Origin: an uncultured delta proteobacterium
GTDB taxonomy: Bacteria > Desulfobacterota > Binatia > Bin18
Reading direction: 5' to 3'
NCBI GenBank assembly: GCA_963733195.1
Contig: CAVTCR010000062.1
Coordinates: 64,001-128,000 of the forward strand
DNA length: 64,000 nucleotides
The position numbers and the translations under genes were made by a program. Position 1 is the stretch's first letter. Each line of letters opens with the position of its first letter. Shown in pieces: positions 4,070 through 5,746 of the stretch. The notes under the pieces are model-generated. The model made no database searches, was not told the origin of the DNA, and worked only from the letters and a program-made list of their open reading frames with translations.

Positions 4070-5746
4070 ATGACAATGCTTTCAGTCGCTGCGCAATTGC
4101 GCATGTTGTTACGCCGTCCCGGACCGGCGTTGGTACTCGGGGCCCATGATGCATTATCCGCCAAACTCGCCGAAGAAGCCGGGTTCGATGCTATCTGGGC
4201 GAGCGGATTCGGCATCTCTGCGGTCAATGCCCTCCCCGATGCCAACATTCTCACCATGAGTGAGACACTTGAGGCGGTACAGCGTATGTCCGAAGCCGTG
4301 CGCATTCCGGTCATCGCTGACTGTGACAATGGCTTTGGCAATGCCATCAACGTCATGCGTACGGTAGCGCAGTACGAACGCGCTGGGGTCGCTGGACTTT
4401 GTATCGAAGATAACATCTTTCCGAAGCGCTGCAGTTTCTATGCTGGAGTGCGACGAGAACTCGTTCCGACTGAAGAACATGCACGCAAAATTCAAGCGGC
4501 TAAAGCTGCGCAACAGAATCCCGATTTCGTGGTGATTGCTCGAACTGAGGCGTTCATTGCCGGTTGGGGAACGCAGGAAGCTTTGACTCGCGCCCGAGCA
4601 TACGCTGAAGCTGGAGCTGATGCGGTTCTTGTCCATTCGAAATCTTCCACCTTCGACGAATTGAAAGATTTTACAGACGCGTGGGAGGGGGCTTGTCCTT
4701 TGGTCGCTGTCCCAACAACCTATGCTGGCATCACTGCTAATGATCTCGCCGCCGCCGGGTTTAAGCTCGTGATCTTTGCTAATCAGGCGTTGCGTTCGGC
4801 GGTCAAAGCAATGCGGGAGTCACTCGCTGTTCTTAAACGTGAAGCCCGACCAGCCGCAGTTGATAGCCGGATTGCCACCCTACCTGAAATCTACGAGCTT
4901 GTCGGTGTTCCTGAGTTGCAGACCAATGAGAAGAAATTTCTCCTTCCAGGTGGGCACGATGTCACAGCTGTCATAATCGCCGCTGGATTTGAAGAGAACC
5001 TGCTGCCTTTGATCGAAGATCGGCCAAAGGCGATGTTGGAAATTAAAGGCAAGACAATTCTAGAGCGACAGATCCAAGCGCTCAACGAATGCGGCGTAAA
5101 AGATGTCGCAGTGGTGCGTGGCTACCGCAAAGAAAAAATCAATCTTCCTAACGTTCGCTATTACGACAACGATCGTTTCCGCGACACGGGCGAACTGGTG
5201 TCGCTGTTTCTCGCCGAGCGCGAAATGTCTGGTCGTTTCCTTTTTCTCTACTCCGACATCATTTTCGATCCAGCGATTCTCGAAAAGCTATTGAAGTCAG
5301 AGGCCGACATCAGCGTTGTGGTTGATCGGGCCTGGGGAGATCATCCGCATTCTCAAGAAGAGCTGCGGTCTAGAAAACCAGACCTTGTGGTTACCCATCA
5401 ACCGCCAAAGAAAGACTACCGTTTCTTACCGACGGCAGAAGGCACTACACTTGCTCGGGTCGGTCGGACCCTCAACGCTGACGAAACTGATGGTGAATTT
5501 GTCGGTCTCGCCATGTTTTCAGAAGAAGGCGCGCAATTGCTTCGCACGGTGCATCGTCAATCCCACCAACGTTTTCAAGCCCGGAAATTTCACGAAGCAG
5601 AGTCGTTAGAGCACGCTGCGTTTACCGACATTTTGCAAGAGATCATTGATTGCGGCGGGAAAGTCGCGTGCGTTGACATTTATAAAGGCTGGTTAGAGAT
5701 CGACACCTTTGAAGACTACCGCCGTGCCTGGGCGAAGGTGAAATAG
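4070..5746 (+). CDS. PEP mutase/ICL-superfamily enzyme fused to C-terminal NTP-transferase (PntC/LicC-like cytidylyltransferase)
   Basis: IWASGF, ADCDNGFG, EDNIFPKRCS, ARTEA, LVHSK, VPTTY; C-terminal VIIAAG..RPKAMLEI, YSDIIF, WLEIDTFEDY. Confidence 0.85.
   Translation: MTMLSVAAQLRMLLRRPGPALVLGAHDALSAKLAEEAGFDAIWASGFGISAVNALPDANILTMSETLEAVQRMSEAVRIPVIADCDNGFGNAINVMRTVAQYERAGVAGLCIEDNIFPKRCSFYAGVRRELVPTEEHARKIQAAKAAQQNPDFVVIARTEAFIAGWGTQEALTRARAYAEAGADAVLVHSKSSTFDELKDFTDAWEGACPLVAVPTTYAGITANDLAAAGFKLVIFANQALRSAVKAMRESLAVLKREARPAAVDSRIATLPEIYELVGVPELQTNEKKFLLPGGHDVTAVIIAAGFEENLLPLIEDRPKAMLEIKGKTILERQIQALNECGVKDVAVVRGYRKEKINLPNVRYYDNDRFRDTGELVSLFLAEREMSGRFLFLYSDIIFDPAILEKLLKSEADISVVVDRAWGDHPHSQEELRSRKPDLVVTHQPPKKDYRFLPTAEGTTLARVGRTLNADETDGEFVGLAMFSEEGAQLLRTVHRQSHQRFQARKFHEAESLEHAAFTDILQEIIDCGGKVACVDIYKGWLEIDTFEDYRRAWAKVK

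Follow-up and report, generated by a model that had tools for sequence, protein, structure and literature searches.

A predicted non-canonical PEP mutase with a cysteine-containing active-site loop and a degenerate fused nucleotidyltransferase domain in an uncultured member of the Binatia

We identified in the genome of an uncultured delta proteobacterium of the Binatia a gene encoding an enzyme of the PEP-mutase fold fused at its C-terminal end to a LicC/PntC-like nucleotidyltransferase domain. The protein is likely to work as a non-canonical PEP mutase and to be the first enzyme of a 2-aminoethylphosphonate (AEP) head-group pathway, predicted to be of the 'Group 1 phosphonolipid' type. Domain architecture, a conserved active-site loop, phylogenetic position, the presence of partner genes, co-occurrence and adjacency all point to this reading, and the mutase activity itself and the final product are deduced from them. 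The gene lies in a window of 64,000 nucleotides, the whole stretch of DNA that was analysed, and the following features were assigned in it.

2087..4002, + strand: DEDD exonuclease/GIY-YIG gene, the upstream neighbour, falling into two ORFs that overlap (2087-3496 and 3355-4002)
4070..5746, + strand, stop codon included: PEP-mutase-fold/nucleotidyltransferase fusion gene, 558 amino acids, two domains
4070..4957, + strand: N-terminal PEP-mutase-fold domain, residues 1-296 (PF13714, TIGR02320, model superposition)
4406..4435, + strand: active-site gating loop EDNIFPKRCS, residues 113-122
4964..5743, + strand: C-terminal LicC/PntC-like nucleotidyltransferase domain, residues 299-558 (PF12804 and PDB sequence matches)
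4985..5029, + strand: degenerate nucleotidyltransferase signature GFEENLLPLIEDRPK, G306-K320 (ungapped alignment to LicC)
5953..6918, + strand: 321-residue single-domain protein with squalene-hopene-cyclase-type repeats, the downstream neighbour
7012..7398, + strand: Rieske [2Fe-2S] protein (PF00355, E 2.3e-19)

The open frame spans 4031-5746 on the + strand, with an in-frame TTG at 4031 upstream of the ATG at 4070. The ATG is the likely start, since homologues of 556-559 amino acids cover 100% of the 558-residue form. Searches with Pfam placed PF13714 (PEP_mutase) at residues 11-252 (E 4.3e-62) and PF12804 (NTP_transf_3) at residues 302-425 (E 2.5e-12). The latter match, together with PDB sequence matches of the C-domain to LicC (1JYK, 3.5e-14) and a PntC-AEPT fusion (6PD1, 1.9e-7), bears out the fused PntC/LicC-like domain that an earlier, sequence-only reading of this DNA had described. 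Against TIGR02320, the PEP mutase model, the query scored 279.9 bits and its orthologues 268-296 bits, all below the curated cut-off of 319.55, and the EDKX5NS motif used in surveys was not matched, as the query differs from it at two residues. The best PDB sequence matches were nevertheless PEP mutases, 5UNC (1.3e-85) and 1M1B (4.6e-64). The AlphaFold model of the protein had a mean pLDDT of 92.3, and its N-domain superposed on 5UNC with a target-normalised TM of 0.97 and an rmsd of 1.0 A, compared to a TM of 0.88-0.91 for methylisocitrate lyases.

The active-site loop was read correctly as EDNIFPKRCS in the sequence-only reading, and the PepM-type residues listed there (IWASG, DCD, ARTEA, HSK and VPTTY) align with those of PEP mutases. 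Relative to the canonical loop, Asn115 replaces Lys and Cys121 replaces Asn. In ungapped PDB alignments the loop is EDKRFPKVNS in the PEP mutase of Streptomyces platensis (5UNC), EDKLFPKTNS in that of Mytilus edulis (1M1B) and EDKTFPKDTS in phosphonopyruvate hydrolase (2DUA). The lyase 1ZLP reads EDQVWPKKCGH, and its Cys occupies exactly the same alignment column as Cys121. The query loop continues as K-R-C-S-F and not as the lyase-type K-[KR]-C-G-H, and the Glu of 1ZLP is replaced in the query by a His, which the mutases also have. The query is identical to 1M1B at Mytilus Asp58, Asp85, Asp87, Glu114, Lys120, Ser123, Arg159 and His190, which we take to be active-site residues of PEP mutase; the named catalytic positions all match in the ungapped alignment save K116N and N122C (Mytilus numbering). 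Residues D57, D84, D86, E113, K119, S122, R158 and H189 were invariant in an alignment of 57 sequences. The loop Asn, which is Cys in the query, is reportedly important for catalysis, as judged by mutagenesis of the Mytilus enzyme. Cys121 is probably a tolerated, perhaps ancestral, stand-in for this phosphoryl-binding Asn.

A sequencing error in the loop was ruled out by its conservation: EDN[IVL][FY]PKRCS was present in 118 of the 121 sequences examined, that is, the query and 117 of the 120 homologues listed. For the other three the loop lay outside the resolution of the pattern window, and two of these sequences were truncated. This Cys-loop family is represented in Binatia and Nitrospirota and in some further lineages; one of the listed homologues is named from Nitrospira sp. 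Kam-Ns4a. Family members from Binatia and Nitrospirota share 55-60% identity over their full length.

Phylogenetic trees were built from the N-domain. From 162 matched sequences, 18 whose match to the domain profile extended over fewer than 240 positions were left out beforehand, and a careful tree was computed with 83 of the remaining 144 rows, comprising all rows lacking EDK...NS except the long-branch own_C72 (62 rows) and every fourth canonical row (21 of 81). The query fell in a clade of eight fused rows, all with the Cys (support 98/94), and this clade was contained, along with all PEP mutases and no lyase-type protein, in a clade of 76 rows supported at 100/99. It lay outside the canonical EDK...NS crown (support 100/93; the tree backbone is a polytomy), within a group of 24 rows supported only at 86/82, and the bootstrap had not settled. 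Hydrolase-like rows (EDK..DTS, EDK..DSS) nested within the canonical crown, away from the query. When the tree was rooted on lyase-type proteins, KRCS was the loop of the stand-alone lineages that split off first within the mutase clade (P0176; P0131 with P0129), and KRCG or KRCA that of the outgroup rows closest to it. Intermediate loops such as EDNxFPKRNS also occur among the rows. The query clustered with neither PrpB nor phosphonopyruvate hydrolase, and membership of the PrpB-type lyases or of the phosphonopyruvate hydrolases was ruled out by scores, residues and trees.

As the sequence-only reading had noted, the window contains no phosphonopyruvate decarboxylase (Ppd) gene, and the single match of TIGR03297 on the contig is of a generic TPP-enzyme kind and falls beyond the window's limits. 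A search of the whole genome for ppd and aepZ, which that reading had proposed, yielded a split Ppd-like pair beside an AEP transaminase on contig C12, where a nucleotidyltransferase gene is also found.

C12:17844-18886: split Ppd-like decarboxylase pair; profile matches below every cut-off
C12:19067-20140: AEP transaminase, following the Ppd-like pair (TIGR03301, 367.7 bits, above the cut-off of 360.8)
C12:27516-28232: stand-alone nucleotidyltransferase, signature GVGKR...PK

A CDP-OH_P_transf gene and an LPG_synthase_TM gene are present on contig C3. The pathway gene set is dispersed over at least three contigs, and no pathway gene clusters with the fusion gene in the window. A canonical PEP mutase was not found by a profile search of the genome with PF13714, an absence that is not proven because the genome is 93% complete. 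The six PF13714 matches were the query, four proteins with lyase-type or unrelated loops, and a protein on contig C72 that was too divergent for tblastn and has the aligned loop EDATG-DKNKP.

We then examined whether the Cys-loop gene and the AEP transaminase occur together in 121 genomes of the same class, counting transaminase matches of at least 300 bits. The Cys-loop family was present in 42 of the 121 genomes and the transaminase in 41 of these 42 carriers, compared to 4 of the 79 genomes without the family, three of which have a canonical EDK...NS mutase; these counts overstate the support, because related genomes are not independent samples. No protein passed the TIGR02320 cut-off in five genomes of the same family that each consist of a single contig and are 96-100% complete; the orthologue scored 274-296 bits, and the next match at most 143. 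Nor was the cut-off passed in any of five genomes reached from Nitrospirota and 'delta' loci. Two family-carrying genomes lacked an AEP transaminase match, G231 (88% complete) and G269, a Nitrospirota chromosome in which the split decarboxylase adjoins an aldehyde dehydrogenase and a citrate-synthase-like gene.

Gene order in relatives was also informative. The fusion gene lies 1-8 kb from the transaminase in 19 of the 121 class genomes, and 0.6-3 Mb from it in closed relatives of the same family. Orthologues directly beside Ppd and AEP transaminase genes were found in other Binatia families, in Nitrospirota and in a 'delta proteobacterium' group. At three loci that we examined, the genes for the PepM-like protein, PpdA, PpdB, AEP transaminase and a nucleotidyltransferase follow one another in this order, and at two of the loci the gene that comes after them is for a CDP-OH transferase; the loop is EDN[VD]FPKRCS in all three. 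Clustering of neighbours covered 69 of 81 sources, those whose target gene was kept by the ORF caller. PpdA, PpdB and AEP transaminase were encoded within 10 kb of the gene at 41, 40 and 40, respectively, of 58 Nitrospira-type loci, and all three at 4 of 11 loci of other types.

The immediate neighbours in the window are of a different kind. Both pieces of the upstream exonuclease gene match NF005906, and the relative L015 has a single open frame here (7981-9927); the two overlapping ORFs therefore indicate a frameshift. The downstream 321-residue protein gave weak SQHop_cyclase matches in Pfam and NCBIfam and matched the squalene-hopene cyclase 1GSZ in the PDB (7.3e-9). Its gene is syntenic in the closest relatives, where it keeps its place and orientation in the window and 13 fetched loci, as is the Rieske gene in 12 fetched loci and the window. 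A scan of 3800-7500 for promoters and terminators gave counts within the range of shuffled sequence. An HpnN-like transporter gene (590 bits, below its cut-off) adjoins the Ppd-like pair and AEP transaminase on contig C12, and the squalene-hopene cyclase of this genome sits on a separate contig, C19. Only the HpnN-like transporter and the small cyclase-repeat protein beside the fusion gene point to a link with hopanoids.

The pathway that we propose would begin in the N-domain, which is predicted to bind Mg2+ and PEP in its (beta/alpha)8 site and to shift the phosphoryl group from oxygen to carbon, giving phosphonopyruvate. The split, thiamine-diphosphate-dependent decarboxylase encoded on contig C12 would pull the unfavourable mutase equilibrium, and the adjoining transaminase would yield AEP. 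Following activation with CTP, a CDP-alcohol-phosphatidyltransferase-type enzyme (contig C3) could hand AEP to a membrane lipid or another envelope acceptor.

Which protein would carry out the activation step is less clear. Canonical EDK...NS fusions have the same order of domains, and their C-domains are homologous to that of the query throughout, with alignments of 240-267 residues at 26-40% identity (E down to 1e-52). The consensus GXG(T/S)RX4-8PK, with roles for Arg15 and Lys25, is given in the available text of Rice et al. 2019 (PMC6697681), where the characterised PntCs (Ari1348 and Tde1415) are not mutase-fused domains. In place of GXG(T/S)R the fused domain reads G306-F-E-E-N310, so that the signature Gly, Thr/Ser and Arg are missing, and P319-K320 is retained. 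This GFEEN-type degeneration is conserved across the Cys-loop family, and stand-alone nucleotidyltransferase paralogues read GVGKR...PK. The suggestion that the fused domain performs CDP/CMP activation is therefore doubtful: the signature is lacking, and a separate enzyme with an intact signature belongs to the pathway set. With the GXG(T/S)R pyrophosphate loop gone from the fused domain, it may be the separate, canonical nucleotidyltransferase that carries out CMP activation. We give roughly equal weight to the fused domain being the CMP-AEP-forming enzyme and to its being accessory, with the stand-alone enzyme performing this step. A bolder extension would be that the degenerate domain is now a non-catalytic module with a regulatory or scaffolding role.

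The exact alignment of Cys121 with the 1ZLP lyase Cys, the KRCS loops of the earliest mutase-clade branches next to outgroup rows with KRCG or KRCA, and the intermediate loops may indicate that the N-domain makes phosphonopyruvate while Cys121 adds chemistry of its own, for example by giving or taking a proton, a role inherited from the lyases. The product could then differ from that of canonical mutases or be joined by a second one, or another step could limit the rate, and the clade would be a surviving intermediate between lyases and mutases. We regard this as quite unlikely, as the tree backbone is largely unresolved, the 24-row group of the query has support of only 86/82, the root depends on the choice of outgroup, the mutase His replaces the lyase Glu partner, and phosphonopyruvate alone satisfies the gene context. 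A related conjecture, to which we assign a small though somewhat better chance, is that the K-R-C-S loop was ancestral to the whole PEP-mutase lineage and derived from lyase-like ancestors, the clade in Binatia and Nitrospirota being a living transitional form in which C-P bonds are made without the 'essential' Asn. Canonical EDK...NS would in that case be a later refinement and not a requirement.

It is very unlikely that the N-domain is instead a lyase-type C-C enzyme, or another enzyme of the isocitrate-lyase superfamily, whose product is nucleotidylated by the fused domain, which was the second alternative of the sequence-only reading. The K-R-C in the loop is lyase-like, and both the PEP-mutase cut-off and the motif are failed, but residues apart from K-R-C are of the mutase type, with no G-H after the Cys and His for the lyase Glu. 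The methylisocitrate-lyase model (TIGR02317) gave 199 bits against a cut-off of 354.4, branches supported at 100/99 separate the query from lyase-type rows, and the gene co-occurs with, and adjoins, decarboxylase and AEP transaminase genes where no other mutase was found. A catabolic enzyme resembling phosphonopyruvate hydrolase is a still slimmer prospect. The TIGR02321 score of 276 bits nearly equals the PEP-mutase score, and the model superposes on 2DUA with a target-normalised TM of 0.96; this score is however below the cut-off of 374.4, the hydrolase-like rows lie inside the canonical crown and the query elsewhere, and the genes next to it in relatives form a biosynthetic set, with a decarboxylase, an AepZ-type transaminase, a nucleotidyltransferase and a CDP-alcohol transferase. 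The partner genes could also be thought to form a sulfonate pathway, in which a sulfopyruvate decarboxylase and then a transaminase would lead to taurine and the co-occurrence would have another cause, since the decarboxylase pair scored 128.9 and 186 bits against the sulfopyruvate-decarboxylase alpha/beta models, approximately equal to the phosphonopyruvate-decarboxylase scores. The adjoining transaminase nonetheless exceeds the AEP-transaminase cut-off and occurs in nearly all family-carrying class genomes, the genes are colinear in relatives, and we know of no role for an enzyme of the PEP-mutase fold in sulfonate synthesis, which makes this pathway extremely improbable.

The preferred reading of a non-canonical PEP mutase agrees with the first alternative of the sequence-only reading, a cryptic enzyme of C-P bond formation that motif-based mining overlooks. 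The activity is a prediction, and this alternative gains support from the split Ppd-like pair and AEP transaminase, the lack of a canonical mutase among the matches, adjacency in relatives and the EDKX5NS filters of surveys. According to the available text of PMC6697681, PMC8942020 and PMC12723261, phosphonate surveys count a protein as a PEP mutase only if it matches EDKX5NS perfectly, and the accessible part of a preprint (10.1101/2020.11.04.368217) relaxes this rule only beside a Ppd that passes its cut-off. Carriers of the Cys-loop gene would count as non-producers, because the motif is failed and Ppd is split and below the cut-off; mining by neighbourhood would miss the gene too, as in this family the mutase gene is megabases from the rest of the pathway. 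The carriers overlooked in this way include many Nitrospira-type nitrite oxidisers and several Binatia families. In a literature search restricted to sources outside subscription journals, we found neither a published description of the Cys-loop clade or of phosphonates from Nitrospira or Binatia, nor an assayed enzyme of the clade. If the enzyme works, C-P bond formation would have to be estimated as more widespread in soils, sediments and engineered nitrifying systems, and a natural variant would be at hand for testing what the loop Asn has been proposed to do in catalysis. Should the KRCS loop be ancestral, phosphonate-producing lineages, including globally abundant nitrite oxidisers, would have been systematically undercounted.

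In comparison with canonical PEP mutase (PepM/Ppm, EC 5.4.2.9; 1M1B/1PYM and 5UNC), the query has the same fold (TM 0.96-0.97), 39-50% identity and all but two of the Mg2+- and substrate-binding positions, and its genome and those of relatives likewise contain the Ppd and AEP transaminase partners. Unlike the canonical EDKX5NS, its loop is EDNIFPKRCS (Lys to Asn, Asn to Cys). Phosphonopyruvate hydrolase (2DUA) is about 46% identical and differs in its loop, EDKTFPKDTS. With methylisocitrate lyase and petal death protein (1MUM, 1ZLP) the query shares the superfamily fold, the K-R-C and the Cys position, but it lacks G-H after the Cys, has His for the lyase Glu and is found in a different gene context. 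The Ppm-PF12804 fusions, as described in the accessible text of Rice et al. 2019 (PMC6697681), have the same order of domains, with the mutase N-terminal and a MobA-like NTP transferase C-terminal, and their clusters also encode a second, stand-alone nucleotidyltransferase; the query would join the motif-less fused PF13714 sequences that were removed there (22 of 905 fusions). By its description in the available text of Li and Horsman 2022 (PMC8942020), the gene set of the 'Group 1 phosphonolipid' or 'Burkholderiales_CDP-OH' clusters corresponds to the present one, in which the CDP-alcohol transferase and LPG_synthase_TM genes are the two of phospholipid type. In that paper Yu et al. 2013 is also cited for the Group 1 phosphonolipid family and the product of the Burkholderia cluster is uncharacterised. 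According to the same text, the core of these clusters consists of seven genes, encoding a fused Ppm-PntC, Ppd, AEPT, an alpha-KG/Fe oxygenase, a second PntC and two phospholipid proteins. An alpha-ketoglutarate/Fe(II) oxygenase was not found among the conserved neighbours scanned. Six of the seven kinds of gene in the core as described there are present in the genome studied here, dispersed in it and colinear in relatives, and the set differs from that core in its non-canonical mutase and in a Ppd that is split into two genes.

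An open frame at 4031-5746 on the forward strand encodes, from an ATG at 4070, a protein of 558 aa (the query) in which a PEP-mutase-fold N-domain is joined to a LicC/PntC-like nucleotidyltransferase C-domain. Homologues of 556-559 aa span its whole length.

Query gene, Pfam domains of its product, and flanking genes
2087-3496 and 3355-4002, forward strand: two overlapping ORFs of a DEDD exonuclease/GIY-YIG (UvrC-like) gene, both matching NF005906
4070-5746, forward strand: the query; PF13714 (PEP_mutase), residues 11-252, E 4.3e-62; PF12804 (MobA-like NTP transferase), residues 302-425, E 2.5e-12
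5953-6918, forward strand: single-domain 321-aa protein with squalene-hopene-cyclase-type repeats (PDB 1GSZ at 7.3e-9; no obvious signal peptide)
7012-7398, forward strand: Rieske protein, after the cyclase-repeat gene

The contents of the window are those of an ordinary chromosome (TldD/PmbA, exonuclease, ECF sigma factor, glutamate-cysteine ligase, hydantoinases, cobalamin genes and others). The exonuclease gene is a single 648-aa frame in the related locus L015, and its two ORFs here point to a frameshift, which either stems from an assembly indel or marks a genuine pseudogene. The cyclase-repeat and Rieske genes also lie downstream of the gene in the closest relatives, and were not found in three operons of other Binatia families; RND pump genes (TetR, HlyD, AcrB) follow the mutase-like gene in 27 to 33 fetched loci. 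A second MobA-like nucleotidyltransferase (36051-37064, reverse strand), ~30% identical to the Nitrospira cluster enzyme, adjoins an LptF/LptG permease gene and probably belongs to unrelated envelope metabolism.

Active-site loops in ungapped alignment to the query
Query, residues 113-122: EDNIFPKRCS
5UNC, Streptomyces PEP mutase: EDKRFPKVNS
1M1B, Mytilus PEP mutase: EDKLFPKTNS
2DUA, phosphonopyruvate hydrolase: EDKTFPKDTS
1ZLP, petal death protein (lyase): EDQVWPKKCGH

Cys121 of the query aligns exactly with the Cys of the lyase 1ZLP. The query is identical to the Mytilus enzyme at the positions of Asp58, Asp85, Asp87, Glu114, Lys120, Ser123, Arg159 and His190, whose catalytic or binding roles we take from the PEP-mutase literature, and it carries the mutase His ('LVHSKS') whereas 1ZLP has Glu ('...FVEAPA'). 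The hybrid character is confined to the gating loop, where a lyase-like K-R-C is followed by the mutase Ser and Asn replaces the Lys of the canonical motif, EDKX5NS. The sequence-only reading had described the domains, the loop and the other named residues correctly. The loop is not a sequencing error, as EDN[IVL][FY]PKRCS is kept in 118 of 121 sequences (the query and its 120 best database matches); the other three were not read by the loop pattern window, and two of them are truncated.

Comparison of the query with superfamily members (NCBIfam scores, all below cut-off; target-normalised TM scores against the AlphaFold model)
PEP mutase: TIGR02320, 279.9 bits (cut-off 319.55); 5UNC, TM 0.97, rmsd 1.0 A; Mytilus mutase, TM 0.96
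Phosphonopyruvate hydrolase: TIGR02321, 276 bits (cut-off 374.4); TM 0.96-0.97
Methylisocitrate lyase: TIGR02317, 199 bits (cut-off 354.4); TM 0.88-0.91

The N-domain was searched against 1.84 billion cluster representatives. Among the best 150 matches, inspected for loop type, 85 carried EDK...NS, 23 EDN...CS and 12 EDN...NS, and the rest either had mixed loops (such as EDS...CS, EDN...HS and EDK...TS) or escaped the pattern; the 'diagnostic' motif is therefore not sharp even near the query. A tree of 83 rows (IQ-TREE, LG+C20), rooted on the lyase-type paralogues of the query's own genome and with bootstrap values not quite settled, placed all EDx...CS, EDx...NS and EDK...NS proteins in a clade of 76 rows (100/99), with the lyase-type rows outside. 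Three stand-alone KRCS proteins branch first, and the remaining rows (97/90) form a polytomy that comprises small EDN...KRNS lineages, a 24-row group containing the query (86/82) and a canonical crown of 28 rows (100/93), within which the hydrolase-like EDK..DTS and EDK..DSS rows fall. The query's own clade consists of eight fused proteins, all with Cys (98/94), and the branching order was the same in a quick tree of all 144 domain rows. Clustering with PrpB or phosphonopyruvate hydrolase, which had been named as evidence against C-P bond formation, was thus not observed for the query. Given the root chosen and a backbone of weak resolution, the tree order, with KRCG and KRCA outgroup rows, suggests that the loop Cys is an ancestral retention. 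The AlphaFold model (57-sequence alignment, mean pLDDT 92.3) supports the same superfamily placement as the tree.

Database matches are annotated as 'phosphoenolpyruvate phosphomutase' in JGI and as 'isocitrate lyase/PEP mutase family protein' in NCBI; their sources are Candidatus Binatia, Nitrospira and Nitrospirales, and Thermodesulfobacteriota. When one genome per species was scanned, 80 loci were obtained: 14 are 74-84% identical to the query (11 labelled Binatia or Binatota, three under other labels), 58 are Nitrospira-type (55-60% identity), and the few remaining are labelled delta proteobacterium, Thermodesulfobacteriota, Planctomycetia, Omnitrophota or Polyangiaceae. Two loci titled 'uncultured Enterobacteriaceae bacterium' (L017 and L023) show 75-77% identity to the query and Binatia-type synteny, and their label is probably a taxonomic mislabel of bins. 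Mean column identity was 72% in a 14-sequence alignment, and both domains are under strong constraint.

The absence of a phosphonopyruvate decarboxylase (Ppd) from the window, remarked on from the sequence alone, was confirmed; the pathway partners sit elsewhere in the genome (6.9 Mb, 93% complete), where the suggested search for ppd/aepZ located a split Ppd-like pair and a 2-aminoethylphosphonate (AEP) transaminase on contig C12. The gene order there is outer-membrane factor, MlaC, HpnN-like MMPL transporter, split thiamine-diphosphate decarboxylase (161 aa and 187 aa) and class-V aminotransferase. The last of these, with 367.7 bits, exceeds the TIGR03301 (AEP aminotransferase) cut-off of 360.8. 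Against the phosphonopyruvate-decarboxylase model, the two halves of the decarboxylase reach 133.8 and 185 bits, and against sulfopyruvate-decarboxylase subunit models about the same; because all these scores are below the cut-offs, the Ppd assignment rests on the neighbouring aminotransferase. A 247-aa nucleotidyltransferase lies ~7 kb farther along C12, followed by PMT_2, a PEMT-like methyltransferase, YdjC and a GT21 glycosyltransferase, and a CDP-alcohol phosphatidyltransferase adjoins an LPG_synthase_TM protein on contig C3. Five other PF13714 genes of this genome have lyase-type or unrelated loops, and no EDK...NS protein was found in the 93% complete assembly.

The HpnN-like transporter (C12:14861-17722; 6861-9722 in fetched locus L095) scores 590 bits on TIGR03480, below the cut-off, and its position, with MlaC and the outer-membrane factor, immediately upstream of the Ppd and transaminase genes hints at lipid export. 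The squalene-hopene cyclase of this genome is on a separate contig, C19. An AcrB-type RND pump between the transaminase and the nucleotidyltransferase (C12 ~21388-25615; L095 13388-17615) is broken into at least three ORF fragments which, with the split exonuclease, suggests assembly indel errors or several pseudogenes.

Within 10 kb of the gene, the Nitrospira-type loci carry the decarboxylase halves (41/58 and 40/58), AEP transaminase (40/58), CDP-alcohol transferase (37/58) and LPG_synthase_TM (33/58); many of those lacking these partners are short contigs. Both halves and the transaminase were within this distance in 4 of 11 other loci and in none of the 11 Binatia-labelled loci. Directly 5' of the mutase-like gene and in the same orientation, 46/58 Nitrospira-type loci encode a ~200-aa protein with no Pfam or NCBIfam match (L029 9282-9896 and equivalents); tblastn found no homologue in the query's genome.

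Among 121 genomes of the window's class, 45 had a full-length match (E 1e-60 or better), 42 of them orthologues (56-100% identity) and three canonical EDK...NS mutases (361-387 bits on TIGR02320). An AEP-transaminase match of at least 300 bits was likewise present in 45: 41 of the 42 orthologue carriers (the exception, G231, is 88% complete), all three canonical carriers, and G196, which has no mutase. In 19 orthologue carriers the gene and the transaminase were 1-8 kb apart, and in another 11 they were on separate contigs; in the 11 members of the window's own family that have both on one contig, 0.6-3 Mb lies between them. Three loci from other Binatia families, with loops EDN[VD]FPKRCS, carry PepM-like, PpdA, PpdB, AEP transaminase and nucleotidyltransferase genes, then a CDP-alcohol transferase in two. 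No match above the TIGR02320 cut-off was found in five single-contig genomes of the window's family or in five others traced from Nitrospirota and 'delta' loci; the orthologue was the sole match above 143 bits in all ten. The latter five have the split decarboxylase (5/5) and the transaminase (4/5). The exception, Nitrospirota chromosome G269, has the mutase-like gene and no AEP transaminase; its split decarboxylase (L114, G269:C1:748000-760000) precedes genes for a 120-aa unknown protein, a citrate-synthase-like protein and an aldehyde dehydrogenase, and may represent another early branch, for instance a route of phosphonoacetate type. Related genomes do not sample independently, so we take the counts to show a pattern rather than to serve as a test.

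Genomes that keep the decarboxylase and AEP-type transaminase have no candidate phosphonopyruvate source other than this gene. Read most simply, the N-domain would be a working PEP mutase with Cys replacing the loop Asn. It would convert PEP to phosphonopyruvate, from which the decarboxylase would form phosphonoacetaldehyde and the transaminase AEP; AEP would be activated to CMP-AEP, and the head group passed to an acceptor by a CDP-alcohol-type enzyme. No oxygenase was seen among the conserved neighbours scanned. From the sequence alone, either a cryptic C-P bond-forming enzyme missed by motif mining or a new ICL-superfamily reaction had been proposed. The first is supported by the lack of another mutase candidate, partner genes in the genome, co-occurrence and adjacency in relatives.

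Canonical mutase fusions have the same C-domain in the same order, and that of the query aligns with theirs over 240-267 residues at 26-40% identity (E down to 1e-52). By sequence, the solved structures closest to it are LicC (3.5e-14) and the PntC-AEPT (AEP transaminase) fusion 6PD1 (1.9e-7). GXG(T/S)RX4-8PK is described as the pyrophosphate site, with Arg15 and Lys25, in the account of Rice et al. (2019, PMC6697681). In ungapped alignment the query has G-F-E-E-N where LicC has G-L-G-T-R, and retains P-K, whereas GVGKR...HRPK occurs in the stand-alone nucleotidyltransferases of the query's genome and of Nitrospiraceae locus L031. The fused domain is conserved and therefore functional in some sense, and it may form CMP-AEP.

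Motif filters recur in published surveys. In their passages on selection, Rice et al. removed fused sequences without the motif (22/905), and Li and Horsman (2022, PMC8942020) and a December 2025 actinomycete survey (PMC12723261) applied the perfect EDKX5NS filter. The procedure outlined by Acker et al. (10.1101/2020.11.04.368217) lets up to two motif residues be missing only beside Ppd or MpnS identified with trusted cut-offs, which the split Ppd of this genome would fail. Full-text searches, confined to main texts outside subscription journals, turned up no description of the EDN...KRCS clade, and none of phosphonate biosynthesis by Nitrospira or Binatia. The window contributes a lineage in which the mutase gene lies apart from the rest of its pathway, a count of co-occurrence with AEP transaminase across the class, the tree position of the query relative to intermediate loops, and the degenerate nucleotidyltransferase signature of the fused domain. 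As outlined by Li and Horsman (PMC8942020), the 'Burkholderiales_CDP-OH'/Group 1 phosphonolipid core, the product of whose cluster type their text gives as still uncharacterised, comprises an alpha-KG/Fe oxygenase besides fused Ppm-PntC, Ppd, AEPT, another PntC and a pair of phospholipid genes, and the gene set described here matches six of these seven kinds, dispersed in this genome and colinear in relatives.
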